Assembly: GCA_023384005.1 (NCBI GenBank)
Contig: JAHDXY010000001.1
Span: 20,042-84,041 of the forward strand
Origin: Burkholderiaceae bacterium
GTDB lineage: Bacteria > Pseudomonadota > Gammaproteobacteria > Burkholderiales > Burkholderiaceae_E
Direction: 5' to 3'
Length of the DNA stretch: 64,000 bases
Made by a program: the position numbers and the translations under genes
Shown here: positions 2,687 through 62,637 of the stretch, in pieces
Layout of the letters: every line of letters begins with the position of its first letter
How positions within the stretch are numbered: position 1 is the stretch's first letter
Notes under the pieces: model-generated
The model's input: only the letters and a program-made list of their open reading frames with translations
The model's database searches: none
What the model was told of the DNA's origin: nothing

Positions 2687-2700
2687 TGCAATTAACTGCA
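2687..2700. repeat. palindrome-family copy
   Basis: TGCAATTAACTGCA (1 mismatch). In the decayed left region, outside the contiguous gene block. Confidence 0.8.
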
Positions 2701-3263
2701 TCTCCTCATCTGCAGGCCGGTCTCCACCTTGGCGAACGAGCGTCTCCTAGCGACGCGCTGTCTAGGGGTTCGTCTTCGTCACCTGTCCCCCCACACATCA
2801 AGATGTGACCTCGAGGCTGCCGTGCGGCATTTTCCTAATCCGGGCCAGGAGCGGCAGTGCTCCCGCTTCGGCACGCTGCGACGCAGCGGCACGCCGAACT
2901 TCCCCTTCGGCTTTGCTATGCTCAGTTGACCGCACTCATCACGCCATCCGGCATGACGTTCATTGGCAGCGCAACGGGCCCGCGCTACCAAGCGACGCTC
3001 AATGGCGTGATCAGCGTCAATGGAGCCGGCGCGCGACCTACTTCCCAGGCGATAGCGGCGGCGTGCTGGCGAGCGGCGCTCAGTACAGCTAGCAGTCTGT
3101 CGACGACAGTCGAGTCAGATTGCTGTTGATACGTCAACGCCTTGCCTCGAATTTTGATCTTTGTCAACGCAGGGCGCTCACATGAGCTTAATGCGAAGCA
3201 CGCACAACTTACGGCAGTGCGGCCTTGTTTGCACGGTCTTCGGTGTAGTAGAGCCACTAGTAC

Positions 3264-3740
3264 TTGAGTAAGCAAGTTTCACACAAGGTCGCTCGCATGA
3301 TCGATCACCACGGACTGCAGCCCAAGAGTGCTTCGATCGATGCGCACGTAGGCCTTCGGGTGAAGCAGCGGCGTGTTGAACTCGGGATGAGCCAGGAAGA
3401 CCTTGCCCGAAAACTCGACACCACGTGGCAGCAGGTACTGAAGCACGAGACCGGCGACATCCGTCTCACGTGCGGGCGACTGTACGAACTGTCGCGAGTG
3501 CTGAAGGTGCCGATGGAGTGGTTCTTCATTGGCGCGCCCGGGGTAGATCTGACCCTTGATCACGAGCGACTTCGAGCCGATGCTGATGATGCGCTCATAG
3601 GCGAGCTCGTTGAAACCTTGCGCGAGATCCGCAGCCCCTCGGTAACAGCGAAGGCGATCAACATGATCAAGCTGCTGATCGACCTCCATCGAGAGAGCAG
3701 CCCAGCTCCAGACCACAGTCGGTCGGCAGAGTGCCCCTAG
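3264..3740 (+). CDS. XRE-family HTH regulator
   Basis: 158-aa ORF with HTH LGMSQEDLARKLDTTWQQVLKHETGD. The ATG at 3297 may be the true start. Confidence 0.7.
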   Translation: MSKQVSHKVARMIDHHGLQPKSASIDAHVGLRVKQRRVELGMSQEDLARKLDTTWQQVLKHETGDIRLTCGRLYELSRVLKVPMEWFFIGAPGVDLTLDHERLRADADDALIGELVETLREIRSPSVTAKAINMIKLLIDLHRESSPAPDHSRSAECP

Positions 3741-3941
3741 CCAGCCACGTGCTCGCCAGCCCATGGAGGACCCAGCGCCCCAGACAGACCTGCCATGATC
3801 GGACCGCATGCCTTTACTGAACGTTGTTTTTTCAACCCGTTGCTGATGTTGCTTCACGTTGGCCGCACAGTTGCCAATCCACCCAATCCGGCTAAACTTT
3901 GCACCGTCGGGAGCATTTTTGTGGCGTAGTGGCGGGGTTGG

Positions 3942-4352
3942 GTGCAAATGGGTGACAATGCTAACGCAGTCGAAGCTGAGCGGAGAGGGCTCGACGATCA
4001 GCCAGCAGATGCTCTGGGGAATGGAACGCTTGAGAAAGTTGAACTGATCGAGATCGGCGCAGAATTTCTAAGCCTGCAGCTTCGACTTGGAACGATGCTG
4101 GATACCCAGCAAAAGGCGTGGCCAGGTGCTGCGTGGACTGAGGAATTGGAGCAGCAGTGGGCTCGAAGAGTCACCCCCATCTATGATCGAATCGCGGAGC
4201 TGAGATGGGCGGCCGTCCGTTGCCCCGCGAACTCGCTCGCTGAGCTCAGGACCAAGGCAACTATCCTGATGGACGTCGTCGAGGACGACTCGGGTGACGT
4301 CACCTCTCAATTGACCATGTCCCTGTGCAGGGATCTTGTCGGGGCGGACTGA
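3942..4352 (+). CDS. hypothetical protein
   Basis: 136-aa ORF with balanced composition; no recognisable motif. Confidence 0.4.
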   Translation: MQMGDNANAVEAERRGLDDQPADALGNGTLEKVELIEIGAEFLSLQLRLGTMLDTQQKAWPGAAWTEELEQQWARRVTPIYDRIAELRWAAVRCPANSLAELRTKATILMDVVEDDSGDVTSQLTMSLCRDLVGAD

Positions 4353-4397
4353 CCGAAGTCGCGTCCCAGCCTGTGGAGCTGACGATCACCGCAGGAT

Positions 4398-4760
4398 CTA
4401 ATCTGCGCCCGCGCGACAGCGAGTGGGCGCTCTAGCCACAATTATCCGCTTGGCCCCCCCGATGTAGGGGTTGTCGACAGATGCGGGGCTGCCGGGCGCG
4501 CCGCAGTGCCGACAGTCCCTCTTGCCGGGCGAAACCGGCATCTCGCGCGCCATCCGGATCTCATGACGGGCGACATTCAGTGCCGTTCGCGCGACGGGAT
4601 TCAACCAGCGCTGATACCAGCGGCGCGCCTGATCGGCCTTGTCGGCAACCGCGAACCGCGCCAGCAGTTTGGGCATGGTGCGCTCGAGGCGGTGGGCCCT
4701 GCGTGCATAGTAGGCATAGCGGGCTTGGGCTACCCGCTGGTGTCTATAGGCTCGTCTCAT
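4398..4760 (-). CDS. hypothetical basic protein
   Basis: 120-aa ORF with AGGAGG about 8 nt upstream of the ATG. Arg-rich; no family recognised. Confidence 0.4.
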   Translation of the reverse strand: MRRAYRHQRVAQARYAYYARRAHRLERTMPKLLARFAVADKADQARRWYQRWLNPVARTALNVARHEIRMAREMPVSPGKRDCRHCGAPGSPASVDNPYIGGAKRIIVARAPTRCRAGAD

Positions 4761-4789
4761 GACTGCGTCCTCCTGTTGGGAAGGATTCG

Positions 4790-5216: not shown

Positions 5217-5384
5217 CTATGTGCGGCCGGCTTCTCCCGCGATGGTGGGCATCTGTAGGTTACTCCTGTCGTTCTGTTGCAATTGATTGCACGCACTTCT
5301 GATCTCCTGCTCGTTGAGGAACTGGCCGCATGGGCAGAGCAGCGTGTCGTAAAAGTAGCCGGCCGGGTGATACTGCCTGGTCAC
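5217..5384 (-). CDS. candidate 55-aa protein
   Basis: Hand translation from GTG: TRQYHPAGYFYDTLLCPCGQFLNEQEIRSACNQLQQNDRSNLQMPTIAGEAGRT. GGGAAG upstream. Starts 39 nt after motif copy 5424, like several other genes. Confidence 0.3.
   Translation of the reverse strand: MTRQYHPAGYFYDTLLCPCGQFLNEQEIRSACNQLQQNDRSNLQMPTIAGEAGRT
5278..5291. repeat. palindrome-family copy
   Basis: TGCAATTGATTGCA (1 mismatch). Inside candidate ORF 5217-5384. Confidence 0.8.
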
Positions 5385-5423: not shown

Positions 5424-5437
5424 TGCAATTAACTGCA
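5424..5437. repeat. palindrome-family copy
   Basis: TGCAATTAACTGCA (1 mismatch). Between stop 5478 and candidate start 5384. Confidence 0.8.
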
Positions 5438-5751: not shown

Positions 5752-5765
5752 TGCAATTAATTGCG
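5752..5765. repeat. palindrome-family copy
   Basis: TGCAATTAATTGCG (1 mismatch). 19 nt upstream of the ATG at 5732. Confidence 0.8.
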
Positions 5766-7477: not shown

Positions 7478-7491
7478 TGCACTTAATTGCA
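7478..7491. repeat. palindrome-family copy
   Basis: TGCACTTAATTGCA (1 mismatch). The central TAA is the stop of 7483-7890. 41 nt before start 7436. Confidence 0.85.
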
Positions 7492-7965: not shown

Positions 7966-7979
7966 CGCAATTAATTGCA
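7966..7979. repeat. palindrome-family copy
   Basis: CGCAATTAATTGCA (1 mismatch). The central TAA is the stop of 7971-8273. Confidence 0.85.
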
Positions 7980-8510: not shown

Positions 8511-8524
8511 TGCACTTAATTGCA
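8511..8524. repeat. palindrome-family copy
   Basis: TGCACTTAATTGCA (1 mismatch). The central TAA is the stop of 8516-9154. 41 nt before start 8469. Confidence 0.85.
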
Positions 8525-9460: not shown

Positions 9461-9474
9461 TGCAATTGATTGCA
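9461..9474. repeat. palindrome-family copy
   Basis: TGCAATTGATTGCA (1 mismatch). Between hairpin 9476-9509 and the promoter candidate. Confidence 0.85.
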
Positions 9475-9538: not shown

Positions 9539-10729
9539 CTACTCGTCCGACTCTTCGATCTCGACGGAGATGTTGGTCGTCGGAAACGCCTTCTCCAGCG
9601 CCTCCAGGGCGGCTTCCAGGCCCATCTTCTGCAACCGCTGGGTCATCGTCTGGCCGCCGAGGAAGTCGAGGCAGACGAACTCCAGAGCCGCCGTGTCGAC
9701 CGACGTGCCGCTCTGCTCCTTGGCCTTGGCGATGGCGGCCTCGATCGTCGCCTTCTGGTCCTCGTGCACCTTGAAGGTCTTGGTCGTGACCGTCTTCGCA
9801 CTCTGATCCTCGAGGGCCTTCGGGGCGTCCTTGGCCTTATGCCCCTTGACGGTCTCGATCAACTGCAGGGTCGTCTGCGAGTTCGCAAGCGAGACCCACT
9901 CGTCGACGTTCTCGATCGTCAGGACCTCGGCGATCTCCTTGAGCTTGGTCCAGCCAAGGTCCTTGACCTTCTCCCAGGGCACCTTGCTTTCGGCGAGGTG
10001 ATTGTAGATCGACACCCAATAGGCCGCCCGGCGGTAGTGCATGCCGAGCTCCTTCTCGACATACTCGCGGAACGACGCATAGGGCTCGTACCAGCCGTTG
10101 GCCTGGATCACGGAGAGCACGCCGCCGAGCTTGAACAACGTCATCTCGGTTTCGTTGTTCAGGGCCGTGACGACCGCGCGGGCCTCGTTCTCCTTCATGT
10201 TCTCGATCTCATGCACGAGATCGGAGAGCACGTCATCGCCTGGCGTCTCGATCGTACCCGTCTTGGCAGTCTTGCCAGTCTTGGCCACCGCCTTGCCGGG
10301 TTTCTTGGACTTGGCCGGCTTCTCAGCCTTCGACACCAGTGCCTTCCCTGCTTGCTCTGGAGCCTTCATCTCCGGGGCAGGCTCCGGCTCCGCCGCCGTC
10401 GTGTCAGACGCGGCTTCCTCGGCTTGTTCAGGGGCCTGTTCAGTCTCGCCGTCGTCGGCCTCAGCGAACTGCTCATTGAGCCACGCCCGCTTTTCGTCGA
10501 CCTTCATCTTCGCCCAGCCTTCGGGCACCTCGATCTCGTGCTCCGCGACGAGAGCATCGAGCTCCTTGCTGGACATCTTGTCGACGTCGACCACGACGGC
10601 CTCACCGTCATCCTTCTCCGCGGCCGGCTGCTCAGCCACTTCCGCGGCATCGGGCTTCTTCTCCAATTCCTCTTCGAGAGCGGCTGTCTTGCCACCTTTG
10701 AGAAGAGAAAGACTTGCTGCGCTTGACAT
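9539..10729 (-). CDS. acidic protein with C-terminal DNA-binding-like domain (paralog of 5797-6324)
   Basis: 396-aa ORF with GGAGGG upstream. The N-terminal half is Glu/Asp/Ala/Lys-rich. The C-terminal block contains RRAAYWVSIY and DLGWTKLKEI. Confidence 0.65.
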   Translation of the reverse strand: MSSAASLSLLKGGKTAALEEELEKKPDAAEVAEQPAAEKDDGEAVVVDVDKMSSKELDALVAEHEIEVPEGWAKMKVDEKRAWLNEQFAEADDGETEQAPEQAEEAASDTTAAEPEPAPEMKAPEQAGKALVSKAEKPAKSKKPGKAVAKTGKTAKTGTIETPGDDVLSDLVHEIENMKENEARAVVTALNNETEMTLFKLGGVLSVIQANGWYEPYASFREYVEKELGMHYRRAAYWVSIYNHLAESKVPWEKVKDLGWTKLKEIAEVLTIENVDEWVSLANSQTTLQLIETVKGHKAKDAPKALEDQSAKTVTTKTFKVHEDQKATIEAAIAKAKEQSGTSVDTAALEFVCLDFLGGQTMTQRLQKMGLEAALEALEKAFPTTNISVEIEESDE

Positions 10730-10817: not shown

Positions 10818-10831
10818 TGCACTTAATTGCA
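10818..10831. repeat. palindrome-family copy
   Basis: TGCACTTAATTGCA (1 mismatch). Between stop 10844 and start 10729. Confidence 0.85.
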
Positions 10832-15083: not shown

Positions 15084-15097
15084 TGCAGTTAATTTCA
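15084..15097. repeat. palindrome-family copy
   Basis: TGCAGTTAATTTCA (2 mismatches). Overlaps the stop of 15095-15412. Confidence 0.7.
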
Positions 15098-16920: not shown

Positions 16921-16934
16921 TGCAATTAATTGCT
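16921..16934. repeat. palindrome-family copy
   Basis: TGCAATTAATTGCT (1 mismatch). 2 nt after stop 16937. Confidence 0.85.
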
Positions 16935-17811: not shown

Positions 17812-17825
17812 TGCAATTAATTGCC
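17812..17825. repeat. palindrome-family copy
   Basis: TGCAATTAATTGCC (1 mismatch). 50 nt before start 17761. Confidence 0.85.
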
Positions 17826-20001: not shown

Positions 20002-20015
20002 TGCATTTAATTGCA
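20002..20015. repeat. palindrome-family copy
   Basis: TGCATTTAATTGCA (1 mismatch). 4 nt after the DnaB-like stop; a promoter candidate follows. Confidence 0.85.
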
Positions 20016-20019
20016 CGTC

Positions 20020-21306
20020 TTAGACGAATTGCAAATCAGCTACGCTCTCCTCCTCGACCTCCGAGAAGTCCATCGAGCCCCAACTCCATCTGGTCGTGAA
20101 TGAGCCCACTTCGCCGGCCCGTCCCTTGAGGATCTCGATCTTGCGATGCTTGAGGGTCTCGACGCTCTCGTCCTCGAACAGACCCAGCACGATCGAGGCG
20201 ACCTGGGCGATGGCGTCGGAGTAGCCGATGTCTTCGAGCCCGGCCTTTTCGCCCTTCTTGGTGTTCTTCTTGCTGGCTGAGCGGGCAAATTGCCAACTGC
20301 AGACGACGGGGGCAAGGGCGGAGAGCTCCGACTTGATCAGCTCGGCGTTCTCGGCCACCCGGCGATAGCGATCACGCTCGGTCGGGTGCTTCACGAGGTA
20401 GGCTCCGTCGAGGAAGATGGCGGCCGGCTTCAGCTGCCGGGCTATCATCCAGATGTCCTCCACCGTGGCCGCCAGATTGCCATCCACCACGTAGAACGGG
20501 AACGAGTAGCCCTTGATCTCGGTGAGCCCCTGCTTGAGCTTGGCGAGCCCTTTGGAGCTCAAGGCGGCGTGCTTGAGCTGCGAAGCGGAGACGTGGACCT
20601 GCATGGCAGCGAGCCGCTGCTGGATCGCAAGGACGTCCATCTCCATGGAGACAAACATGCGGGATTGGTCGTGCTCGGCCTTCTTACCGGTCGCGAGGGA
20701 TTCCTCACCGGCCTTGCGCCATCCGTGCAGTGCCCCGTAGAGCAGCATGAGGCTCTTGCCTGCCGCTGGGCGGCCGATCATGCTCAGCACGTCTCCGCGT
20801 TCCATACCGCCAGACATCCTGTCGAGGGTCGGCCATCCGAGCTGCAGCCCGTACTCGTCGACGGCGTTGAACTTCGAGGCATAGGTCGACATCAACGTGC
20901 CATAGGCTTCGCGGAAGTCGACGATCTGCTTGATGTGTCGCTGTGAAATTAATTGCATTGCCGTTTCAGTAATGACGCGCAGCGCTTCCTGCGGGTCCTT
21001 GTTCTCCGGCAGCAGCAGATCGCTCACCTGCTTCATGCCCTTCTTGAGCGATAGCTCGACGTGCCGGGCTTGCATCAGGTCGAAGTAGTAGCCTGACGGC
21101 TCCTTGTGTTGGACCAGCGTCTCCCCGGTGTGCTTCTCGATCGTTTCCTCGGACGGCAACGCCTGGTACTGCTTGGCGAAATCTCGGACGAACTCGTAGA
21201 GCTCAACCTCCGTCCCCTTGAACAGGTGGTCGATCTTTCCGTGCTGAAGGAGGTTCGCGACCGAGTTCTCAGCCAGGACAGCCGACACGAACATCTTGCC
21301 GATCAA
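20020..21306 (-). CDS. DnaB-like replicative helicase
   Basis: 428 aa. DnaB-type N-terminal domain, Walker A GRPAAGKSLM, and FVSMEM. Confidence 0.85.
   Translation of the reverse strand: MIGKMFVSAVLAENSVANLLQHGKIDHLFKGTEVELYEFVRDFAKQYQALPSEETIEKHTGETLVQHKEPSGYYFDLMQARHVELSLKKGMKQVSDLLLPENKDPQEALRVITETAMQLISQRHIKQIVDFREAYGTLMSTYASKFNAVDEYGLQLGWPTLDRMSGGMERGDVLSMIGRPAAGKSLMLLYGALHGWRKAGEESLATGKKAEHDQSRMFVSMEMDVLAIQQRLAAMQVHVSASQLKHAALSSKGLAKLKQGLTEIKGYSFPFYVVDGNLAATVEDIWMIARQLKPAAIFLDGAYLVKHPTERDRYRRVAENAELIKSELSALAPVVCSWQFARSASKKNTKKGEKAGLEDIGYSDAIAQVASIVLGLFEDESVETLKHRKIEILKGRAGEVGSFTTRWSWGSMDFSEVEEESVADLQFV
20944..20957. repeat. palindrome-family copy (intragenic)
   Basis: TGAAATTAATTGCA (1 mismatch). 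Inside the DnaB-like CDS, coding MQLISQ. Confidence 0.75.
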
Positions 21307-21878: not shown

Positions 21879-22906
21879 CAGAATTTGTCCTCACCGAGAA
21901 TGTTCATCAGCTCCGCGTGGGTCTGAGGCACGTAGTCGTCATCACCGGGTTTCGGCTTCGGCTTCTGTGAAATTAATTGCACGGACTTGGCAACAACCTT
22001 TTTCGGCGACGACGCCTCCTGCGGAGCCTTCTTGGGTTGGGATGCGAGGAACAGATTTACAGCAATGCCGGCGTGTTTCAAGAGGAAATCTACATTAGGA
22101 TCCAACGGCGTCGTCTTGACCCCTGCAGCCGACTCCACCTCCTTCGTGAACTCCAACCAGTTCATCAGCACATGGCGGAGAACAGTCTCTGCCTTGCCTG
22201 CGGGACACTTGGCGCGGAACAGCTTCAGCTGGCCGTATTGCTTCGAGGTCAGCTGGGGAACGTACTTCTCGAGCTCCTGCGCTATCGTGGTCTTCCAGAC
22301 GTACTCCAGAGCCTTCACGGAGTCGGGCTGGTGTAGCTTCCCGCCAGCTTTGAATTTGTTCAGTGCATCCGCAACTGTCGCGGCGTTTTTCTCTTGGTCT
22401 TTGTTTACCATTCCCTCTTTCCCGCCTTCTTGTTTCTCCGCGGGAGACACACTGGCATGCGTCAGCATGCTAACTCCCTGTGATTCTCCCTGTGATTCTC
22501 CCTGCATATACGAAGTATATGAAGCCGTGCTTGGAGACACGCATTGGGCGGTGTCGTTTGACACCTCCTGCCCAGGGTCTTCTCCGTCTTCTCGAGCCGC
22601 CGTTTTCAGGGCTTCTGTGCACTTGTTCGTGACCAGGACGTGCATGACATTCTTGCCGTGGAACAGGTGCTGGCTTGTTTGAATCAGCCCCTGCTGCCGG
22701 AGCTTGGACAGCCCGTCCTTCACCTGTTGATGTGACAGCCCCGTCTCGAACTTGATCTCAGAGTAGGGCTTCGCGATCCAAAGGCGGCCGTTGAACTCTC
22801 GGGTCGGCTTCCAGAAGCTCAGCCTGTAGAGAATGATACCCGACACGGGCGATCCGGCGACGTGCACACACCGCCCGATGTGCGGGCGCTCCATCTTCTT
22901 TGACAC
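21878..22906 (-). CDS. putative replication initiator (winged-helix N-terminus)
   Basis: ORF track 21878..22969. GTG at 22906 follows GGAGG. wHTH-like LSHQQVKDGLSKLRQQGLIQT. Contains the iteron/AT-rich cluster at 22440-22570. Confidence 0.55.
   Translation of the reverse strand: MSKKMERPHIGRCVHVAGSPVSGIILYRLSFWKPTREFNGRLWIAKPYSEIKFETGLSHQQVKDGLSKLRQQGLIQTSQHLFHGKNVMHVLVTNKCTEALKTAAREDGEDPGQEVSNDTAQCVSPSTASYTSYMQGESQGESQGVSMLTHASVSPAEKQEGGKEGMVNKDQEKNAATVADALNKFKAGGKLHQPDSVKALEYVWKTTIAQELEKYVPQLTSKQYGQLKLFRAKCPAGKAETVLRHVLMNWLEFTKEVESAAGVKTTPLDPNVDFLLKHAGIAVNLFLASQPKKAPQEASSPKKVVAKSVQLISQKPKPKPGDDDYVPQTHAELMNILGEDKF
21968..21981. repeat. palindrome-family copy (intragenic)
   Basis: TGAAATTAATTGCA (1 mismatch). 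Inside the initiator CDS, coding VQLISQ. Confidence 0.75.
22475..22521. repeat. 2.5 x 12-bp direct repeats plus AT-rich inverted repeat (origin candidate core)
   Basis: TCCCTGTGATTC TCCCTGTGATTC TCCCTG, then CATATAC-GAA-GTATATG. Lies inside the initiator gene linker (codes GESQGESQG). Confidence 0.6.
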
Positions 22907-22954: not shown

Positions 22955-22968
22955 TGCAATCAATTGCA
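22955..22968. repeat. palindrome-family copy
   Basis: TGCAATCAATTGCA (1 mismatch). 4 nt after stop 22973, then the terminator. Confidence 0.85.
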
Positions 22969-25013: not shown

Positions 25014-25027
25014 TGCAATTAATTGCG
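25014..25027. repeat. palindrome-family copy
   Basis: TGCAATTAATTGCG (1 mismatch). 5 nt after stop 25033; a promoter candidate follows. Confidence 0.85.
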
Positions 25028-26991: not shown

Positions 26992-27005
26992 TGCAATTAA
27001 CTGCA
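26992..27005. repeat. palindrome-family copy
   Basis: TGCAATTAACTGCA (1 mismatch). 24 nt before the endolysin ATG at 26967. Confidence 0.85.
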
Positions 27006-27153: not shown

Positions 27154-27167
27154 TGCAGTTAACTGCA
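27154..27167. repeat. palindrome-family copy
   Basis: TGCAGTTAACTGCA (2 symmetric mismatches, still a perfect palindrome). The central TAA is the stop of 27159-27380. Confidence 0.8.
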
Positions 27168-35917: not shown

Positions 35918-38900
35918 CAGCCATTCCTCGCCCTGGCCCGTGTCATGGCACCCTGCAACCTGGTCAGGATTTGGCTCTGCGAGCGCTGGAACGACGAGGC
36001 GTCCTGAACCCCATTGACGTTCATGATCACCGTGGGTGTATTGCCACCCCTACTGCCCTCGCGACTGCGGTCAGACTCGGCAATCGTTCTCAGGACGTTC
36101 TCGACACGCCTGTTGTCGTTCGCGGTCAGCACACGCTCGCCACGCTGCAGGATCGCCGGGAATTCGTCTCGCCTGAACAAGCCTTCGTGGAAGCGCGGAG
36201 CGCCTGCGAAGGCCGTGGCGGGAACACGACGGGTCGGGTTGCGTACCTTCCCAACCACGCCACCGGTATGGAACAGCATGCCCAGCATACCGCCCATGCC
36301 ACCCATGCCGTTGCCCATGCCTCCCATGAGCGACTGCAGGAGCTGCATGATCATGTTGGTGAACTGACCCATTCCGGGGATCGCCTGATTGAGCGGGCCG
36401 AGTAGGCCGCTGATGCCAGCTCCGAGGCCGCCCATGCCGGGTGTCGCCATGGAGGCTTGCTGCCCGGCCATGGATGCCTGTTGCCCGGCCTGCTGGATCG
36501 AGGTGCCGGCCTGCTGGAACTGCGGAGCCGCCGCTCCGGCTTGCGTACCGGCCTGCTGAATCTGGTTGCCGGCGTTCTGCGTTTGCCACGCATTGTTCTG
36601 GCTCGCAAAGCTCAGCTGATCCTTAGCAGCCTTCTCCTGCTGCGTGCTCATGATCGTCTGTTGAGACGACATCTTCTCGGCCTGCGCGGCCTGGTCTGTG
36701 GCCATCTTGGCCTGGTTTAGCGCCTGGCTCGCAGACTGGCCTGCCTGCCCGAGCTCGTTGAGCTTCTGCGTGGCGGCGTCGAGGCCCATCGACTGGTCCT
36801 GACGCCAGGGCTCGACGATGCCCGTACCCTCGTCACCCTGCTTGTGCGGGTTCACCTCGCCGTGACCAAAGACGTTCGTTCCGATACCGGGATACTTGGC
36901 CCGCATTTCCTCGATCCACTGCTTACCAGCAGCGATCTGGGCAGGCGTAAGATCCTGGTTGTTTCGGGCGATCACCTCCATGCCGATAGTGTTTGAATTT
37001 GACAGTCCCGCACCAACCCCCTGACCTGGCCTCATGTGAGACAAGCGGGCGTTGTCCGGTGCCATCTGGAAGATGTTGCCGTCGCGGTCCATTATGTAAT
37101 GGGCACCAAAGCCGCGCTTGTTCAGCACATCCGCCACGTCCGAGGGATCACCGCGGCCAGCCGTATGGTGCATGATCAGACCTTCGGTCGCCTCACGCAT
37201 TCGGCCGTCCAAATTGAGGCCCCCGAGCTTCTCGACATTACTCTGAAATTCGCTCACCGCTTCGTTGAAGCTCTGAGCTGTAGACGACGTGAGATTTTCA
37301 GTGGCGGCCGTCACGCTTTGTTCGAACTGGTTGCTCCAGGATTTGGCCCCCTGCTCGACGGCGCTCACCGTCAGCGCCTGAGAATCGCTCCACGCCTTTG
37401 CAGCGCTTGCCACGGCATCCACGCTGATCTTGCTGGCCTGGGTCGAAACGTCCTGCAAGGCACTCTGAACCGGAGCGGTGATGGCTTGCTCCACCACACT
37501 CTGGGTGGCGGCCGCCGCGGCAGCTCCCATCACGTTGTCATTGGCGGCCAAGGACGGCAAGCCGGGGATCGCGCCGCCAAGCGGTGTGCCATTAATTGCA
37601 ACGGACCCCGCATTGATGATCGCCTGCGGGGTGTTGATTCCTTTGACGCCGAGTTGCTCGACCTTGTTCAGCGCCTGGCTCGCCCGATCAAGAGCAGCCT
37701 GCCTCCTGTCGGGGAACATGCCCGATAGCAGGTCCTTCAGCATGTGATTGATGGCCAGCCTGACCATCTGCTTGCCGAGGTTGGCAGCCCACTGCTGCAT
37801 CGAGTTGCCGGTGCCTGTGAACAGATCGGCCAAGGCATCAGACAGGCCGCCGATCGCATCCTGTTCCAGCCGACGCAAGCCGTCCTCGAAGGTGCCGAGG
37901 CTGTCCATCCACGCATTGATGCCTGACCGGGACTCGGCGTTCACGTCGGCCATCGCCGTCGCATACTCACGCACAGCCGCGGCAAGTTTGCTGGTGATCA
38001 TCACGCCCTTTTCGCGCAGAGCGTTGATCTCCTGGAGAACCGTCTGCTCAATCTCCCGCTCGCGGCCGATGAGACCCTGCAAATGGAGCTCTTCACGGAG
38101 TTCGCGAACGCGATCCGCAACCGGGTTGCGCCCGGCAAGCGTCGACTGGTTGAGCTGCTCGAGGAGCTGCAGATAACGCTGGGCGTCGATCGCCCCGGAC
38201 TGGAAGGCCCGGCCGAGTGTCCGCACATCCTGCTCATAGGACCGGATCGCAGATCTGATCGGGTCCAGGCGACCCTCCAGATCCTTGAACAGCTCAAGTT
38301 GCTTGGTCTGCGCGATCAGGCGAGCGATCTCGGCTCGGCGCTGGGCCGTCAGCGTGCCAATCTCCCGTTCCGCGTCTGCCAGGCGGTTGGCAATCTCCAA
38401 TTCGACCTTGCGCTCTTCGGTCAGGGCACGGGCCTGCTCAAGCCCCCGGCGAAGCTCGCGCACCATCTCCTCGTAGGCGGTGGTCTTCTCGATCTCGTGG
38501 AGTGCGCGCATCCGGTCCTGGATGGCTCTGTTCTGCTCGTCAGTGAGCTTGCCGTGCTCCTCCTCGATCTCCCGGATGCGCTCACGGATTGCGAGCTCGT
38601 TCTCCTTTGCCTTAGTGAGTGCCCGTGCAGCCTCGATCTCGCGGTCGAGGCTCTTGACCTCAACCGAAATCGGATCGAGCTCCTGCTCGGCTTTGCGGAT
38701 CAGGGCCTTCAGCTTCTCGATGTCCTGCGGCAGGTATCCGGCATTGATGCGTGCTTCGGGGCTGAGAGACAGCAGTTCTTCGAGAGCCTTCTTCTGGGCC
38801 TCAATCTCCCGCCGATCGGCCTTCGGGTAATAGAACTCACGCAGCAGATCGGCTGACTTGCCGGACAGACCCTTACCGATGTTCGTGTTCTTCAGCTCGC

Positions 38901-41654: not shown

Positions 41655-41668
41655 TGCAATTAATTGCA
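41655..41668. repeat. palindrome-family copy, perfect
   Basis: TGCAATTAATTGCA. 1 nt after stop 41670 and 61 nt before the ATG at 41593. Confidence 0.9.
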
Positions 41669-42993: not shown

Positions 42994-43007
42994 TGCAATT
43001 AATTGCG
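42994..43007. repeat. palindrome-family copy
   Basis: TGCAATTAATTGCG (1 mismatch). 5 nt after the major tail stop, then the terminator. Confidence 0.85.
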
Positions 43008-44558: not shown

Positions 44559-44572
44559 TGCAATTAATTGCA
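44559..44572. repeat. palindrome-family copy, perfect
   Basis: TGCAATTAATTGCA. 61 nt before the ATG at 44497. Confidence 0.9.
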
Positions 44573-46955: not shown

Positions 46956-46969
46956 TGCAATTAATTGCA
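46956..46969. repeat. palindrome-family copy, perfect
   Basis: ATGCAATTAATTGCAT (16-bp palindrome). 8 nt after the capsid stop, then a hairpin and T-run. Confidence 0.9.
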
Positions 46970-50296: not shown

Positions 50297-50310
50297 TGCA
50301 ATTAACTGCA
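50297..50310. repeat. palindrome-family copy
   Basis: TGCAATTAACTGCA (1 mismatch). Between stop 50346 and start 50246; a promoter candidate follows. Confidence 0.85.
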
Positions 50311-50345: not shown

Positions 50346-51443
50346 TTACTCGTCCGTGACCCCTGCCTGCGCGAGAATCGCGAGAACCTCCTGGATGTCG
50401 TCAGCCGCGTATGCCTGCAGAGCACGTTGCTGCAAGGCAAGATCGTCGAGCAAGGAAATCCTGTCACGCAGGGCTGTGTTCCCGACGATATCGATCGTAA
50501 GCAGTGTCTCGTAGGCAGGAGCGGCAGGAGCAGCAGGAGCGGCAGGAGCTTGCGGCTGCTTGGGAATGACCATTCCACCGAGAGGAATTTCCTCGGTCAC
50601 GCTCCCGACAAGCATCAGTACGCCGCGACAAAGCGGGTGAAACGGCGGCGATCCAAACCCTGAGTTCTGCAGCTCATCCCTGCTCATGCCATTGAGCGTC
50701 TGCAGCCCGGCCCTCGATTGACTCGGCCACGGCGCGATGCTCTTGAGCTCCTTCGGGTCCATGGTGCCCAGCGCCATCAGGACGCGGCTGTACTCCTTGT
50801 GCACATCAAAGGTCTTGCCGTGCATGTACCGGCAGACGGCACAGGTCCGGCCATCAAGCACCTCGCTGATCTGGTACACCTCGATCTTCTTGTGGATCGC
50901 TTCAGAAAGGAACCCGAGCGTGACCAGCCGGCTGGTGGTGAGATTGGCGGCGATGTCAATGGCTACCTTGCCGTTGCCAAGAACCGCGGCGTTCAGGCGA
51001 TCGGCGAGATCCATGTCAGCCTTCATGACCTCTGCCTTCGTGATCCGCAGCTCCTCCTGGCGGATCATGTCGTGCAATTGATTGCGCACAAAGTCCGCCC
51101 CGCTGTTCTCCACGCTGTCGGTCAACTGGGTCAGCGCCTGCTGCAGAGCATAAGGCAACGTCTGCCGCCCCTCGACGAACGAGGTACTACCGACATTTCC
51201 GGTGACATTATGCGCACCGAAAAGCAGGGAGCCGACAGCCAGCTCCTCCAGCCTCTTACGGTTGGCCTCGACGACGCCGTTCAGCGTAAGCCGGTTCGCG
51301 ATGTCGTGCGCGTCGTCCCAGCGCCCCTTCTCAAGCAGAGGGAGCACCTGTTCCATCAACTTGCGGGCGACCCTTACCCAAGCCGCCTGCATGGTTCTGG
51401 AGATGGACTTCTCCAGGCTGAGGAACGCCTGCACCTTGGCCAT
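50346..51443 (-). CDS. head morphogenesis protein (Mu F / SPP1 gp7-like)
   Basis: 365 aa. DGRTCAVCRYMHGKTF and FGSPPFHPLCRG are typical of this family. Follows the portal. Confidence 0.75.
   Translation of the reverse strand: MAKVQAFLSLEKSISRTMQAAWVRVARKLMEQVLPLLEKGRWDDAHDIANRLTLNGVVEANRKRLEELAVGSLLFGAHNVTGNVGSTSFVEGRQTLPYALQQALTQLTDSVENSGADFVRNQLHDMIRQEELRITKAEVMKADMDLADRLNAAVLGNGKVAIDIAANLTTSRLVTLGFLSEAIHKKIEVYQISEVLDGRTCAVCRYMHGKTFDVHKEYSRVLMALGTMDPKELKSIAPWPSQSRAGLQTLNGMSRDELQNSGFGSPPFHPLCRGVLMLVGSVTEEIPLGGMVIPKQPQAPAAPAAPAAPAYETLLTIDIVGNTALRDRISLLDDLALQQRALQAYAADDIQEVLAILAQAGVTDE
51073..51086. repeat. palindrome-family copy (intragenic)
   Basis: TGCAATTGATTGCG (2 mismatches). Inside the head morphogenesis CDS (RNQLH). 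Confidence 0.65.
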
Positions 51444-51453: not shown

Positions 51454-53328
51454 TTAATGGGCGTGGTGGTGGCCGTGGTGGTAGTCGCCCTGCATCACGG
51501 CGATGGTGCAGCCCATCAGCTCGCCAAGCCCTTCATGATCATGCGACGGGTCTACGAACTGGAGCGTGGCACACGCCTTCTGGAACTCCTTCCGTCCGTG
51601 GTCATCGAGCGTTGCAATCAATTGCACGTTTCTGCTCAGATCGGTGAAGTTGCGCTCCCGCAAGGCGATCAGGGTATCCTGGGCGAGAGCCAGCACCCCC
51701 TGAGTTGCCCCTTTGTGGATCTTCTGCGCCTTGGACGGTGTCGTCGGCTCCGTCGGGGTGCTTTCTGTATCGCCCGGAGCCTGGCCGCCCTTGTTCCCTT
51801 GAGCAAGCGGAACGACGTTGCCGTTCAAATCCACCGTCATCGTAGCTTCAGGTACTTCCTCGGAGACCTTGATGTTCGTTCCGCAGGCTTCGTTGATCTC
51901 GTAGAGGATGTCTTCCATTTCGACACGATTGGTGCTGATCGCCAATTCGATGCCCTGGAGCTTGAGTTGTGTATCCTCGATCGTAAGAGGCTTCGAGGCG
52001 AGCTTGTACTCGCGGTAGCCCATCGCTGCCAGGAGCTTCATCGTGATGACTTCATCGAACTCGTCACGCTCTGGCTTGAAGATCTGGGCTTCGGCCACGT
52101 TGTAGGACACGTAGGCCGTCGCGAACGAGTAATCGTCAGCCTTTCCGACGAAGATCGGGGGCAGCCGGAACGCGCGTCGAACTCGCTGCTCACACTTGTC
52201 GTCGTATTTCTCGAACATGGAGTCGTTCGTGCGTTCGCCGCCGAAGCGCTCCACCGTGACTCGAGCCTGGGTCGGGTTGTCCATCGAGCCACCTGTCGGC
52301 TCGACCTCCAGGATCTGGACGCGGTTCTTCGAGGCAGCGGTTCCGAGGCCCACCTTCTCCTCGAGAGCCTTGCGGGTCTCCGTCTGCAGCATTCCGCCCT
52401 GCAGTAGGATCAGCACGGGCGGGACGCCACCATTGTCGAAGAACTCCATGTTGAACTCCTCTGCCTTGCGGGAGCCCAGCACGGAGGGCAGCTGACTGAT
52501 CCAACGAGGCACGCCGTAGGGCGTATGCGCGTCGGGCAGGCATCTGAAGTGTATGATCTCGGTCGCACGGTCCTTCGCCGGCAGCCTCATACCTTTGGGT
52601 GCCCACACCGCCGTCGTCTTGTGCAGGTCCCTCTCGACGCCGAAGTCCTTGAAATAAACGAGGCTGACACCGTTCACGAGCTGGCAATAGCGGCGCTGCC
52701 GCTCCATGACCGTGATCTTCACCTCTTTGCCTCTCCGGCGAATGATCTTCTCGACCGGAATGGCATCGTCGAGCTTGACCAGCCGCATCATCTTTGCATC
52801 GACGGGCCGGATGAAGACGACCTCGTCCTGGGCATTGCGCAGAACCTCGAGGTAGGCGTTACCTGTACGCTCCAGATCACGGCGCAGCTTCTGACGGATC
52901 GTGACGAAGGATTCACCGGGCCAAGGCTCGTCGAAGAAGTCCCGGAGCTGCTCGATGTTCTTATCGTCCGCAGCGTCCTCTACCTCCTCATCCTCGCTCG
53001 TGAAGTCGTAGCCGGTCCCGTCGATATTGGTGACCATCGCCTCGATACAGGGCGAGAGCGCGTTGTTCTCCTGGGAAAGGCGGTCGAGCGTACGCAAGCT
53101 GTAGGGCGGCTCCAGGATGCCCTGGTCGCGCTGCGCGCCGAGATAGAGATCCTGGTACTCGTCCTCCGGCTCGAAGGCGTTGCCTCGAACCACATTCTCA
53201 GGAGCGTCGATCCCCTGCCGTCGTAGAAACTTCTGAACAGGCTCTTTGCCGGACCCGGCCGAAACCAGTCGGTACACCTGAGCGGTCGGCTTGCCCGAAT
53301 TCTCGGATTCGTCGACTCCATCCGCCAT
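51454..53328 (-). CDS. portal protein
   Basis: 624 aa. ILEPPYSLRTLDRLSQENNALSPCIEAMVTNIDGTGY resembles PBSX-type portals. Position also fits. Confidence 0.85.
   Translation of the reverse strand: MADGVDESENSGKPTAQVYRLVSAGSGKEPVQKFLRRQGIDAPENVVRGNAFEPEDEYQDLYLGAQRDQGILEPPYSLRTLDRLSQENNALSPCIEAMVTNIDGTGYDFTSEDEEVEDAADDKNIEQLRDFFDEPWPGESFVTIRQKLRRDLERTGNAYLEVLRNAQDEVVFIRPVDAKMMRLVKLDDAIPVEKIIRRRGKEVKITVMERQRRYCQLVNGVSLVYFKDFGVERDLHKTTAVWAPKGMRLPAKDRATEIIHFRCLPDAHTPYGVPRWISQLPSVLGSRKAEEFNMEFFDNGGVPPVLILLQGGMLQTETRKALEEKVGLGTAASKNRVQILEVEPTGGSMDNPTQARVTVERFGGERTNDSMFEKYDDKCEQRVRRAFRLPPIFVGKADDYSFATAYVSYNVAEAQIFKPERDEFDEVITMKLLAAMGYREYKLASKPLTIEDTQLKLQGIELAISTNRVEMEDILYEINEACGTNIKVSEEVPEATMTVDLNGNVVPLAQGNKGGQAPGDTESTPTEPTTPSKAQKIHKGATQGVLALAQDTLIALRERNFTDLSRNVQLIATLDDHGRKEFQKACATLQFVDPSHDHEGLGELMGCTIAVMQGDYHHGHHHAH
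51613..51626. repeat. palindrome-family copy (intragenic)
   Basis: TGCAATCAATTGCA (1 mismatch). Inside the portal CDS near its C-terminus (VQLIAT). Confidence 0.75.
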
Positions 53329-53368: not shown

Positions 53369-53382
53369 TGCAATTAATTGCA
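53369..53382. repeat. palindrome-family copy, perfect
   Basis: TGCAATTAATTGCA. 8 nt after the polymerase stop and 40 nt before the portal ATG. Confidence 0.9.
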
Positions 53383-57321: not shown

Positions 57322-57335
57322 TGCACTTAATTGCA
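57322..57335. repeat. palindrome-family copy
   Basis: TGCACTTAATTGCA (1 mismatch). The central TAA is the stop of 57327-57611; a promoter candidate follows. Confidence 0.85.
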
Positions 57336-59502: not shown

Positions 59503-59516
59503 TGCATTTAATTGCA
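59503..59516. repeat. palindrome-family copy
   Basis: TGCATTTAATTGCA (1 mismatch). 6 nt after stop 59523. A half-site TGCAATCAAT lies at 59475. Confidence 0.85.
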
Positions 59517-60585: not shown

Positions 60586-60596
60586 CTCCGCCTCCT

Positions 60597-60610
60597 TGCA
60601 ACTGGTTGCA
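60597..60610. repeat. palindrome-family variant with GC centre
   Basis: TGCAACTGGTTGCA. The outer arms are kept and the TTAA core is replaced. Between stop 60621 and start 60585. Confidence 0.5.
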
Positions 60611-60620
60611 TCTCATTACC

Positions 60621-62582
60621 TCAATCGGTGAGAACGGAGAAGGCTGCGTAGTCAGCCGGGACGATGACCGGGTCTTCGCTAGAGCCAGTCTCGTGGACCA
60701 CCTTCAACCCCTTCAGCTCCGGCATTTGTGACGCGCGGTCCAGCAGCACCGACACAAAGTTGTCGGGCTCCGTCCCGAAGGCATCGATCAGGTCCAGATC
60801 GGCATCCCGGCACAGGCTAAGCGGAGAACGAATGTCCAGGATCACGTGCTCCAGGCTGGGCAGCGCAGCCAACCCGTTCAGAACCGTCCCCAGCACTTCC
60901 TCAGACCCCCACCAGTAGGCGGCCTGGACCGCGTGCCGCCGATGATCCGCTCCGAGGTCTACGGGGGACGACTCATAAGCCTGCATCTTGTCCAGGCACC
61001 AGCCCACCACCTTCTTGACCTCGGGGCTGCCAGAGCTGTCGATCACCGGCACATCGATCTCGAACCAGACGTTCCCCGTGTTGCCGTCGATCGTAACCTT
61101 CTTGCACTTCTTGGCGGCTTCCATGTCGAGCGCAGTGCAGCCGACCACGCAGGTCTTGTCCATCGCTCGCGCGACTACGGCGGCGTGGCTGGTCGCCCCG
61201 CCTGTCTGGGTCAGGATGCCGATCGCCGCGTTCATGCCGGCGATGTCATCGGGCGTCGTTTCGTGCGTGACGAGGATGCAGGGCTCCATGCAATTAATTG
61301 CGTCGCCCGACGAAAACACCGGCTTCCCGGTCACCACGCCGGGGCTCGCCGGGAGCCCGACCACCTTCGGGTCCGCCTTGAACGACGGATCCAGCATCGG
61401 CCGGCGCACGGCCTTGAACTGCGCCTTAGTCAGCCTCTTGAGCGCCGTTTCCCGGTCAATCACATCTCCCCACACGAGGTCGATTGCGATCTTGAAGGCA
61501 GCCCGGGCCGAACGCTTGCCTACCCGGCTCTGCAGGATGAACAGCTGGCCCTGCTGCACGGTGAACTCCACATCCACCATGTCCTTGTACATATCCTCCA
61601 GTTTGTGGCAGGTCTGAATGATCTCGTCGGCCATCTTCGGCCACTCGCCACCGAGAGACTGCATCTCCTTGAGCGGGCGGGGCGTCCTGATCCCAGCCAC
61701 CACGTCCTCCCCCTGGGCGTTCTGCAGGAACTCGCCCATGATCGAGTCATTGCCTGTCGACGGGTCTCGCGTGAACAGCACGCCCGTCCCCGAGTCGTCG
61801 CCCATGTTGCCGAACACCATGGCCTGCACGTTCACGGCGGTGCCCATGCCCTCGTCGATCTTGTTCAGCTTGCGGTACTCGATTGCCCGAGGATTCATCC
61901 AGCTGTCGAACACCGCCCTGATCGCGGCGCGGAGCTGCTCCTGGGCATCGTTGTCGGGGAACGGGAAGCCCTTGTTCTCCTTGAACGCCTTCCGGTAACG
62001 AGCCACCAGCGAAGACAGGTCTATGAAATCGAGTTCCGTATCATCGACCTTCCCAAGCTCCTTCTTTAGCTTGGCCAGCTGGAACTCGAACACCGCGTGC
62101 GGGACGCCGTAGGCCGTGGAGCCCAGCATCTGGATCAGACGACGCTGGCTGTCCATTGCAGCCCGCTGACCGATGCGATCAGCCCACGCACCGAAGTTGT
62201 CCTCGGTCAGGCCGACATTCAGGATCGTGTCCATCATGCCGGGCATCGAGACCGGAGCGCCCGAGCGAACCGAGACGAGCGGCGTGTACCCGAACTGCTT
62301 GGTCAGCCACTGCATGCCCGCGAAGGCATCGCCCACCACGTCCTTGATGAACTCGTCGCGCTCCTTGCCTTCCAGCTGCATGTAAGCGAGACACAGGTCA
62401 GTCGGAATCGTGAAGCCGGGCGGGACGGGCATGCCGGCCTGGGCCATCATGACGAGAGCCGCGCCTTTGCCTCCCAGATGCTTCTTGGCGAGCTTCTGGT
62501 CAGTTTCTGTCCAATCACAATGACCGGCAGAGAACCTGTAGATCTTGCTTCCCACGTTACCCTCCATGGTTTCTGTGGACAC
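60621..62582 (-). CDS. pyruvate phosphate dikinase-like phosphotransferase lacking the PEP/pyruvate domain
   Basis: 653 aa. PPDK N-terminal ATP-grasp blocks (LGGKGAAL, PLVSVRSGAPVSMPGMMDTILNVGL, NAQGEDVVAGIRTP) and the phosphohistidine domain GGATSHAAVVARAMDKTCVVGC. These are followed by only about 150-170 unrelated residues. Confidence 0.85.
   Translation of the reverse strand: MSTETMEGNVGSKIYRFSAGHCDWTETDQKLAKKHLGGKGAALVMMAQAGMPVPPGFTIPTDLCLAYMQLEGKERDEFIKDVVGDAFAGMQWLTKQFGYTPLVSVRSGAPVSMPGMMDTILNVGLTEDNFGAWADRIGQRAAMDSQRRLIQMLGSTAYGVPHAVFEFQLAKLKKELGKVDDTELDFIDLSSLVARYRKAFKENKGFPFPDNDAQEQLRAAIRAVFDSWMNPRAIEYRKLNKIDEGMGTAVNVQAMVFGNMGDDSGTGVLFTRDPSTGNDSIMGEFLQNAQGEDVVAGIRTPRPLKEMQSLGGEWPKMADEIIQTCHKLEDMYKDMVDVEFTVQQGQLFILQSRVGKRSARAAFKIAIDLVWGDVIDRETALKRLTKAQFKAVRRPMLDPSFKADPKVVGLPASPGVVTGKPVFSSGDAINCMEPCILVTHETTPDDIAGMNAAIGILTQTGGATSHAAVVARAMDKTCVVGCTALDMEAAKKCKKVTIDGNTGNVWFEIDVPVIDSSGSPEVKKVVGWCLDKMQAYESSPVDLGADHRRHAVQAAYWWGSEEVLGTVLNGLAALPSLEHVILDIRSPLSLCRDADLDLIDAFGTEPDNFVSVLLDRASQMPELKGLKVVHETGSSEDPVIVPADYAAFSVLTD
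61289..61302. repeat. palindrome-family copy (intragenic)
   Basis: TGCAATTAATTGCG (1 mismatch). Inside the PPDK-like CDS (DAINC). Confidence 0.75.
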
Positions 62583-62587
62583 GATTC

Positions 62588-62615
62588 ATTCTAGCTTTGG
62601 ACCCGTGAGGCGCAA
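62588..62615 (-). promoter_or_regulatory. sigma70-like promoter candidate
   Basis: Minus strand: motif, 8 nt, TTGCGC, 16 nt, TAGAAT. The GTG at 62582 is only 5 nt past the -10, so the mRNA could be leaderless or use a later start. Confidence 0.45.
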
Positions 62616-62623
62616 GAAGTTTT

Positions 62624-62637
62624 TGCAATTAATTTCG
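62624..62637. repeat. palindrome-family copy
   Basis: TGCAATTAATTTCG (2 mismatches). The central TAA is the stop of 62629-63138; a promoter candidate follows. Confidence 0.75.

Follow-up and report, generated by a model that had tools for sequence, protein, structure and literature searches.

The stoperators of L5 and the other cluster A mycobacteriophages are 13-bp asymmetric sites bound by gp71, the monomeric immunity repressor of these temperate phages. The 12 OB sites of RK2 are non-polar 13-bp palindromes that belong to KorB, an acidic global regulator with a ParB N-terminal CTPase domain which acts together with KorA. Only phiC31 and its relatives carry the CIRs, 17-bp inverted repeats bound by isoforms of repressor c, and T4-type phages possess PeSL cassettes of ~50 bp, in which an early promoter is combined with a terminator-like stem-loop and which are confined to hyperplastic regions. 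Here, we analyzed 64 kb of phage DNA (contig JAHDXY010000001.1; called the window below, the phage being ~96 kb long) in which a 14-bp motif, TGCAATTAATTGCA, recurs at 35 sites. Our main finding is that this motif lies mostly between genes, in one orientation, and that its half-site is constant in phages of very different hosts; we are inclined to regard it as a genome-wide operator for a conserved phage-encoded DNA-binding protein that would act on host RNA polymerase.

A scan of the window returned 35 sites within two mismatches of TGCAATTAATTGCA, at exactly the coordinates that a first-pass annotation had read from the sequence by eye, and with the same split: 4 perfect copies (41655, 44559, 46956 and 53369), 27 with one mismatch and 4 with two (15084, 27154, 51073 and 62624). 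Dinucleotide-preserving shuffles of the window, our measure of the chance level, gave a mean of 0.04 sites and a maximum of 1, so that nothing like the observed density arises in shuffled sequence. With three mismatches allowed, the count rises to 39 against 1.0 expected, the additional sites being 5414, 12088, 41913 and 60597. Five weaker sites had also been proposed: 12088 and 60597 are within three mismatches, and 6831, 49537 and 59475 fall outside this limit. The G+C content of the window is 57-62% throughout. As a cellular control we used bacterial and archaeal DNA chosen for one exact copy per locus (at least 120 loci, 879 kb), in which 19 further sites within two mismatches were found. 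The motif is strongly non-random and, as described below, polar and under purifying selection.

In reverse complement, the window is collinear with the initial ~65 kb of Rhodobacter phage RcZahn; its sense strand opens within the terminase gene and continues with a PPDK-like gene, DNA polymerase, portal, capsid and tail, and then replication and recombination genes. By our own gene calling the window has 71 genes, and from 5.4 kb onward almost every one of them is on the minus strand; region 1-5400 codes poorly according to the same caller. Nine motif copies are wholly intragenic and 26 are not. Beyond position 5400, positions without full coding amount to 7.6%, yet 24 of 33 sites occupy them (binomial p = 2.5e-20), which bears out the earlier impression that the copies concentrate at gene boundaries. 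A manual reading of the gene list shows a copy at the upstream end of ~24 of the ~28 gaps of at least 45 nt, commonly 1-12 nt past the preceding stop codon, with the next start codon commonly 40-90 nt beyond the motif. The central TAA of the motif is itself a stop codon in five cases (7478, 7966, 8511, 57322 and 62624), and the five predicted genes that stop there owe their Cys-Asn-stop ending to the motif, which reads TGC AAT TAA over these three codons. Many copies, lying in short gaps or overlapping stop and start codons and sharing a single orientation, are thus present in the window in the manner of stoperators. Two long gaps hold no called gene: 27006-27372, with one copy at its edge (26992) and another inside (27154), and 41901-42476, with a strong terminator-like hairpin (42000-41980) and the 3-mismatch copy 41913. 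All copies are listed in Table 1.

Table 1. Motif copies and the gp66-like gene in the window. The sense strand is the minus strand; mismatches are counted against TGCAATTAATTGCA; distances are taken from our own gene calls; the last column names the aligned relatives in which a copy is kept.
Feature	Position	Strand	Mismatches	Setting (sense direction)	Kept in
motif copy	2687..2700	-	1	sense TGCAGTTAATTGCA; within poorly coding region 1-5400	
motif copy	5278..5291	-	1	sense TGCAATCAATTGCA; intergenic, then AGGAG and ATG	
motif copy	5424..5437	-	1	40 nt past stop of 5478-5705	
motif copy	5752..5765	-	1	31 nt past stop of 5797-6324; next start 46 nt on	
motif copy	7478..7491	-	1	central TAA is stop of 7483-7890; next start 41 nt on	
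motif copy	7966..7979	-	1	central TAA is stop of 7971-8273; promoter-like TTCAAA-18-TAAGAT starts 2 nt on	
motif copy	8511..8524	-	1	central TAA is stop of 8516-9154; next start 41 nt on	
motif copy	9461..9474	-	1	past terminator-like hairpin 9496-9483, which lies after gp66-like gene; TTGTGC-17-TAGAAA 7 nt on (by eye)	
gp66-like gene	9539..10729	-		396 aa; candidate binder	
motif copy	10818..10831	-	1	12 nt past RuvC-like stop, 88 nt before gp66-like start; preceding T and left half form -35-like TTGCAA, then 16-nt spacer and TAGACT	L036, L034
motif copy	15084..15097	-	2	first bases TGA are stop of 15095-15412; RecA-like start 11 nt on	L036, L034
motif copy	16921..16934	-	1	2 nt past stop of SSB-like gene 16937-17761	
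motif copy	17812..17825	-	1	promoter-like TTGACT-16-CATACT (17853-17826) ends 1 nt upstream	
motif copy	20002..20015	-	1	4 nt past DnaB-like stop; TTGCAA-16-TAGCCT 7 nt on	L034
motif copy	20944..20957	-	1	within DnaB-like gene 20020-21306	L014
motif copy	21968..21981	-	1	within initiator-like gene 21878-22906	L014
motif copy	22955..22968	-	1	4 nt past stop; intrinsic terminator 22953-22932 directly after	L014
motif copy	25014..25027	-	1	5 nt past stop; TTGATC-16-CATAGT 8 nt on; AAA-ATPase start 68 nt on	
motif copy	26992..27005	-	1	24 nt before start of 25813-26967 (peptidoglycan-binding domain protein)	
motif copy	27154..27167	-	2	mismatches at mirror positions (TGCAGTTAACTGCA); in 405-nt gap without called gene	
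motif copy	33717..33730	-	1	gene junction: 9 nt past stop of 33740-34639, in first codons of 33225-33737	
motif copy	33835..33848	-	1	within 33740-34639	
motif copy	35494..35507	-	1	within 35291-35917	
motif copy	37587..37600	-	1	within tape-measure gene 35917-40686	
motif copy	41655..41668	-	0	1 nt past stop; right half is -35-like TTGCAA, then 16-nt spacer and TAATCT	
motif copy	42994..43007	-	1	5 nt past stop of 43013-44251, then terminator 42986-42965	
motif copy	44559..44572	-	0	middle of 136-nt gap	L064
motif copy	46956..46969	-	0	8 nt past major capsid stop, then terminator 46954-46923	L064, L018
motif copy	50297..50310	-	1	TTGATG-16-TATTCT 8 nt on; protease start 74 nt on	L064, L080 (motif and promoter)
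motif copy	51073..51086	-	2	within Mu-F-like gene 50346-51443	L064 (identical)
motif copy	51613..51626	-	1	within portal gene 51454-53328	L064, L080
motif copy	53369..53382	-	0	8 nt past DNA polymerase stop; portal start 40 nt on	L064, L080, L018
motif copy	57322..57335	-	1	TAA is stop of 57327-57611; TTGTCT-16-TAGAAT (57312-57285) 9 nt on	L080, L083
motif copy	59503..59516	-	1	6 nt past stop; TTGATT-16-TAGTAT 19 nt on	L080, L083, L108
motif copy	61289..61302	-	1	within PPDK-like gene 60621-62555, codons Ala-Ile-Asn-Cys	L080, L083, L108
motif copy	62624..62637	-	2	TAA is stop of 62629-63138; TTGCGC-17-TAGAAT 8 nt on (by eye); PPDK-like start 68 nt on	

When the 35 sites are aligned in the orientation of the genes, the profile has a one-sided upstream extension, K-M-S-R: purines occupy position 0 in 31 of 35 sites, but pyrimidines its mirror in only 18 (Fisher p = 0.0014). 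The TGCA flanks are at least as conserved as the AT core. The motif is therefore a polar near-palindrome co-oriented with the genes, not a plain palindrome. The symmetric 18-bp form GATGCAATTAATTGCATC, proposed earlier as an extended palindrome with a 7-bp stem, was rejected, as no site among the 35 has both flanks. Dyad symmetry had also been taken to indicate a dimeric protein; a set of operators on double-stranded DNA is still the best reading, and it is the simple dyad that does not hold.

Sites are also kept at homologous positions in related phages, so that the motif withstands the checks by which the first-pass annotation would have had it refuted. An exact-match scan of viral contigs with the motif yielded many loci, with a G+C content of 56-61% and a motif density equal to that of the window (0.4-0.9 sites per kb). 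Eight of them (L064, L080, L083, L108, L034, L036, L014 and L018) align to the window at ~70-75% nucleotide identity. L064 retains 6 of 7 window sites, L014 retains 20944, 21968 and 22955, and copies 50297, 53369, 59503 and 61289 recur among L080, L083 and L108. In 21 motif-anchored intergenic pairs of window and relative, identity is 92.5% over the 14 motif bases and 37% in the flanking 20 nt on either side; in intragenic pairs, it is 90% in the motif versus 65% in the flanks. Genes that are present in relatives as extras carry their own motif copy. For instance, an HNH/NUMOD4-like open reading frame (ORF; EGFYEVSSLGRVRSLDR...) stands between DNA polymerase and portal in L080 (4247-4870), flanked by two perfect copies, and similar extra genes are bracketed by copies in L083 (4825/5255) and L108 (6859/7294).

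To look beyond these close relatives, we used the general form TGCAA-N4-TTGCA with at most one mismatch in the ten outer bases. It is common to a broad set of phage genera that had hitherto not been connected: 26 sites were counted in RcZahn, 24 in Rhizobium phage RHph_TM16 (TM16), 41 in Stenotrophomonas phage DLP5 and 26 in Vibrio phage SIO-2 (45% G+C), with 1-3 expected in each, and there are 49 in Rhodobacter phage RcTiptonus and 34 in the Samunavirus PA_L9 of Pseudomonas. The half-site does not change, and the centre differs from clade to clade: TTAA in the window, TCAA in RcZahn and DLP5, TCGA in RcTiptonus, CATA or CAAA in TM16 and RCGY in PA_L9. Asymmetric variants again follow the genes, as TCAA does in RcZahn (12 versus 0 for TTGA, p = 0.0005), the DLP5 centre (21 versus 9, p = 0.04) and, in RcTiptonus, TACAAT... 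versus ...ATTGTA (15 versus 3, p = 0.008). Several intragenic copies are shared as well. That at 61289 also occurs at the homologous codons of the PPDK-like gene of DLP5; a ParB-like gene has a copy at the same codons in DLP5 and TM16; and in an NAD-dependent epimerase gene the same codons (Ala-Ile-Asn/Ser-Cys-Asn) hold a copy in DLP5 (65549), RcZahn (97710) and TM16 (72121), each with a centre identical to, or one base off, the usual variant of that phage. The epimerase copies suggest selection on the DNA inside a coding sequence. We found no description of the motif in the literature on these phages, a coverage that stops short of the subscription papers on SIO-2 and VHS1, and none of its variants in a phage context in the literature searched.

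A half-site that is identical in phages of Alpha- and Gammaproteobacteria calls for a reader conserved in all of them, or for a very conserved host component. Fifteen proteins are common to all seven motif-bearing genomes: the large terminase, DNA polymerase, portal, protease, major capsid protein, an AAA ATPase, DnaB, primase, SSB, helicase, RecA, a resolvase, a Cas4-type exonuclease, RuvC and a gp66-like protein. The last is the only one without an enzymatic or structural assignment. Its gene always directly follows the RuvC-like gene, and six genomes have a motif copy just upstream of it (window 10818, RcZahn 58281, DLP5 47683, TM16 29046, RcTiptonus 67935 and PA_L9 70140). The copies of RcZahn and DLP5 are perfect TTAA-type sites with a promoter behind them, and the DLP5 genome has no other TTAA site. 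The protein has Lys/Ala/Pro-rich, histone-H1-like stretches. An AlphaFold2 model of its 236 conserved residues (predicted local distance difference test score 86) is all-helical with two domains; beyond homologues, a Foldseek search of viral models gave weak matches to DUF3102 and Spo0J/ParB-like proteins (E 0.015-0.4). A profile search of a large protein collection returned no annotated relatives, and gp66 gave no match to Pfam ParBc or HTH_ParB and no significant one in the PDB. We regard the gp66-like protein as the leading candidate for the binder, a lead rather than a demonstration. Family members have an acidic N-terminal region, the histone-H1-like stretches and a conserved helical core, and one homologue matches Pfam HC2. 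Homologues are encoded at 68031-69326 in RcTiptonus (gp82) and 70269-71570 in PA_L9 (PAL9_96), and that of DLP5 is DLP05_067. The 254 homologues recorded on related contigs include some from Nitratireductor and Sinorhizobium fredii (chromosomal contigs) and from Brucella intermedia (a 104-kb contig), which suggests that both integrated and episomal prophage forms exist.

Other candidates fared less well. Pfam and PHROG scans of 50 window ORFs revealed no regulator except one Xre protein. RcZahn, DLP5 and SIO-2 lack a homologue of this protein (tandem helix-turn-helix, HTH, domains; 808-1473, plus strand), which is therefore an unlikely reader of a family-wide site. The ParB-like gp1 (GGHHR motif), encoded beside the terminase and outside the window, gave no Pfam domain hit and is missing in SIO-2. 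The regulators DLP05_060 and VPEG_80 of SIO-2 are homologous to each other and absent from RcZahn, TM16 and the window, and a small gp59-like core protein (15095-15412) has no domain and no DNA-binding features. Among host factors, IHF, Fis, CRP/FNR, sigma-54, NtrC, NrdR and CtrA were set aside in an informal comparison of consensus sequences, in which spacing or half-site did not fit. The Xre gene and its neighbor (53-676, plus strand) are the only clear plus-strand genes and converge on the minus-strand array; the neighbor encodes an ATP-dependent DNA ligase domain, and the Xre protein has two HTH_3 domains.

How does this set of sites compare with the systems described above? With L5 stoperators it has in common ~25-35 short sites per genome, placed in gaps, on start or stop codons and also at promoters, a single orientation relative to transcription and a motif shared by a whole phage cluster; it differs in that the window site is a 14-bp near-palindrome of unrelated sequence, which spans three bacterial classes and includes phages described as lytic. 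No repressor-type protein common to the motif-bearing genomes was found, in searches that did not include gp71 itself as a query. The first-pass annotation had spoken of a genome-wide operator or stoperator-like set. An operator set for a protein is the best supported of its suggestions, but a classical immunity-repressor stoperator fits poorly, because TGCAA is unchanged across three bacterial classes, phages described as lytic are included and no repressor-type protein is shared. KorB offers a second parallel. Dispersed palindromes of 13-16 bp in many copies, as in KorB, ParB and Noc systems, are found in the window and in the six phages; like OB sites, some copies lie just upstream of a -35 element and others far from promoters, and gp66 is, like KorB, acidic, with a weak resemblance to ParB-like helical domains. 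However, there are 24-49 polar sites per genome here versus 12 non-polar ones, and Pfam detects no ParB CTPase domain in gp66. The phiC31 CIRs are likewise intergenic inverted repeats found in many copies genome-wide, often between a terminator and the next promoter, but they share no sequence similarity with the motif, and we identified no homologous protein. These three systems appear to be the closest, yet membership in any of them is not supported, since the sequence is unrelated, the site is a near-palindrome and no shared repressor- or ParB-type protein was found. T4 PeSL cassettes are similar as short conserved modules between small genes that bracket indels and plausibly promote cassette shuffling, whereas the window motif is a 14-bp palindrome of protein-binding type.

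LacI/GalR-family operators, TGnAAnCGnTTnCA (PurR, MalR, CcpA cre and CytR), are also 14-bp palindromes with TG.AA/TT.CA half-sites, and the variants of PA_L9 (TGCAAACGCTTGCA) and RcTiptonus (TGCAATCGATTGCA) fit this form, central CG included; the centres of the window (TA), DLP5 (CA) and TM16 (AT) do not. The string GCAAACGCTTGC occurs as a text match in a paper on MalR. No LacI-type HTH (PF00356) was detected by Pfam in 40 window ORFs and 10 proteins of relatives, a set that leaves ~30 window proteins and the ~32 kb of the phage beyond the window uncovered, and we know of no LacI/GalR-family regulator common to these hosts.

Whether the motif acts as DNA or as RNA can be judged from the way its halves vary. 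As RNA, it would form a hairpin with a 5-bp stem and a 4-nt loop, used between cistrons for processing, for stabilization or for antitermination of the nut/boxB kind. Its co-orientation with transcription and a clade-specific centre, which would be the loop, suit this proposal, as does its placement just past stop codons and sometimes just before terminators, like lambda nutR, or directly ahead of ribosome-binding sites in RcZahn and DLP5. However, the perfect 14-mer has a predicted folding energy of only -2.5 kcal/mol. In five genomes, 82 sites carry a single mismatch: 11 of them remain paired through G.U in the sense RNA and 25 in the antisense RNA only, and for 46 pairing is lost in both; at the closing pair, the most frequent RcZahn variant, TGCAATCAACTGCA, has an A.C mismatch. 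No compensatory pattern is seen: the half-sites vary by independent single mismatches, as is typical of protein sites on duplex DNA, and this favors a DNA-level site. Some copies, furthermore, are located between a terminator and the next promoter (9461 and the SIO-2 cassettes), and an Rfam scan matched no family anywhere in the window. We therefore rejected the RNA hairpin, an option that the first-pass annotation had kept, as the main explanation, and consider it highly improbable.

A generic scan of the window for sigma-70 promoters and terminators found fewer promoter matches than in shuffles, and was replaced by scans anchored on the motif, the first limited to the DNA downstream of it and the second allowing overlap. 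The downstream scan gave promoter-like pairs at 7 of 34 window sites in the sense direction and at none in antisense, with a background of 3.3% at random positions; when overlap was allowed, 13 window sites had a sense promoter-like element versus 4 in antisense. The distance from motif to -35 element clusters at 7-9 nt in the window, 8-9 in TM16, 9-10 in SIO-2 and 17-18 in RcZahn. A conserved cassette can be recognized, made of the motif, 5-9 nt, CTTGNN, ~17 nt and TAnnnT, and is kept at 57322, 50297, 62624 and 20002; at 46956 and 22955 the conserved order is stop codon, motif and intrinsic terminator. In overlapping geometries, the -35 element is formed by the preceding T and TGCAA or by the right half TTGCAn, the -10 by a left half TACAAT, or else the motif fills the spacer or covers the start site. 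At 17812 it covers the predicted start site, since the promoter-like 17853-17826 has its end 1 nt upstream. Good promoters of RcTiptonus have their -35, spacer, -10 or start site overlapped by the motif, at classical repressor-operator positions, and in RcZahn and DLP5 many copies are 2-5 nt ahead of a ribosome-binding site. The site thus marks the head of transcription and translation units, with several geometries relative to RNA polymerase. The terminator that follows the major capsid gene (46923-46954) has a stem that covaries among the window, L064 and L018, and a 16-nt loop, GGATGAAATACTCTGG, that is identical in the window and L064; this loop contains a -10-like TACTCT 17 nt after TTGCAT of the motif at 46956.

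Such arrangements could also mean that host RNA polymerase reads the motif itself, with no dedicated regulator, the TTGCA halves serving as -35 elements and the AT core being UP-like; each gene cassette would then have its own promoter module, possibly read by polymerase that a phage sigma-like or appropriator protein has modified. A half-site does stand in for the -35 of promoter-like sequences at 10818, 41655, 46956 and several RcTiptonus sites, and the TACAAT variant of RcTiptonus for the -10; the core AATTAATT falls at ~-55 to -48 of downstream promoters, in UP-element territory; extra genes of relatives come with both motif and promoter; and the top PDB fold matches of gp66 are sigma factors. 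Those matches are non-significant (E > 1), however, and the 35-site profile holds no -10-like element at a fixed distance from the motif. Many copies leave no room for a promoter, such as those close to the ribosome-binding site in RcZahn and DLP5 and those between a stop codon and a terminator, and intragenic copies are conserved. A plain UP element, that is, an A/T tract at -40 to -60 lacking G/C flanks, does not fit, since the TGCA flanks are conserved like the core; its position fits only a subset of sites, most copies having no promoter at the right distance. We judge a regulator-free promoter element quite unlikely.

A different possibility is that the motif is a DNA signal unrelated to transcription: a loading site of the ParB, Noc or KorB kind, for partition or condensation of an episomal prophage, a nick site of the T5/tf/phiKMV type, where virion DNA is interrupted on one strand at a consensus, or a preferred site of resolution or recombination through which gene cassettes are exchanged. 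Dozens of dispersed 14-bp palindromes resemble the Noc NBS, parS and KorB OB sets, and the structural similarity of gp66 to Spo0J/ParB and DUF3102 helical domains, weak as it is, points the same way, as do the copies inside the ParB-like gene of DLP5 and TM16. Indels between relatives are bracketed by copies (L080 4870/4247, L083 4825/5255 and L108 6859/7294), ATT|G on both strands fits the cleavage preference of RuvC, whose gene is universal here, polarity is compatible with nicking of one strand, and relatives exist both as ~100-kb contigs in isolate genomes and integrated in chromosomes. On the other hand, the strong intergenic bias and the fixed promoter distance are not expected of partition, nicking or resolution sites; Pfam finds no ParB N-terminal domain in gp66 or in RcZahn gp1, the gp1-type ParB-like protein is absent from SIO-2, and a 5-bp stem cannot extrude a stable cruciform. 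On these grounds a signal of this kind seems unlikely to us.

We thus return to the genome-wide operator. A conserved protein, most plausibly phage-encoded, would recognize the motif on double-stranded DNA as a dimer or a two-domain unit, at ~35 sites in the window and 24-49 per relative genome. Once bound, it would contact or hinder host sigma-70 RNA polymerase where a promoter starts 7-9 bp downstream (or roughly one helical turn further); where the motif overlaps a -35, -10 or start site, it would occlude the promoter, and at junctions without a promoter it might form a roadblock to read-through. The net effect, by repression or activation, would be coordinated control of most transcription units, either as silencing or as a temporal switch. 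A number of observations weigh against this proposal. Many sites adjoin no recognizable promoter, lying 40-46 nt before a start codon, before terminators or, in nine cases, inside genes, and the commonest position, ~-58 to -45, is upstream of the -35 element, where activators or UP elements are more usual than repressors. Polarity relative to transcription is inseparable from polarity relative to replication or packaging, because all genes are on one strand. Lytic growth has been described for part of the family (Samunavirus UF_RH6), and this speaks against a role limited to silencing in lysogens. As to the candidate binder, SIO-2 has no site with at most one mismatch directly upstream of its gp66 homologue, gp66 is acidic overall (isoelectric point 4.5-5.5), a PDB fold search with its model gave nothing significant, and neither Pfam and PHROG scans, which covered 31 gp66 homologues besides the 50 window ORFs and 10 proteins from relatives, nor PDB profile searches placed it in a DNA-binding family.

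A bolder version assigns the reader's role to the gp66 family as a hitherto unrecognized, universally conserved, chromatin-type phage regulator, which would organize whole siphovirus genomes of 80-110 kb and switch their transcription in the manner of KorB. Its acidic character, histone-H1-like stretches and ParB/DUF3102-like helical domain would be the features of such a protein, and the central 4 bp would have co-evolved with it around a fixed half-site. The range of this regulator would extend over Samunavirus, Delepquintavirus, SIO-2/VHS1-like, RcF and RcZahn/TM16-like phages of Alpha- and Gammaproteobacteria. We put it forward tentatively and hold it to be rather doubtful.

Two further observations concern the phage itself. 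The source was deposited as a metagenome-assembled genome of a 'Burkholderiaceae bacterium', and the closest cultured relatives infect Rhodobacter and Rhizobium, so that the binning-based host assignment may be wrong. Block 56428-62555 encodes the PPDK-like protein (PPDK_N and a PEP-utilising mobile domain), two tyrosine-phosphatase-like proteins and conserved unknowns of the gp10 and gp12 types; it is common to RcZahn, TM16, DLP5 and SIO-2, and is not found in RcTiptonus or PA_L9.

If one protein reads all the sites, a single short sequence would define how regulation is laid out in a large, widespread group of phages of 80-110 kb, which includes Pseudomonas and Stenotrophomonas phages under development for therapy. 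The motif would then provide an immediate map of transcription units in these phages, and a handle for engineering, in the form of a cassette of motif, promoter and gene. A fixed half-site with a clade-specific centre would make a clean natural system for the co-evolution of a protein and its DNA site, and the insertions bracketed by motif copies suggest how new genes may slot into these genomes.

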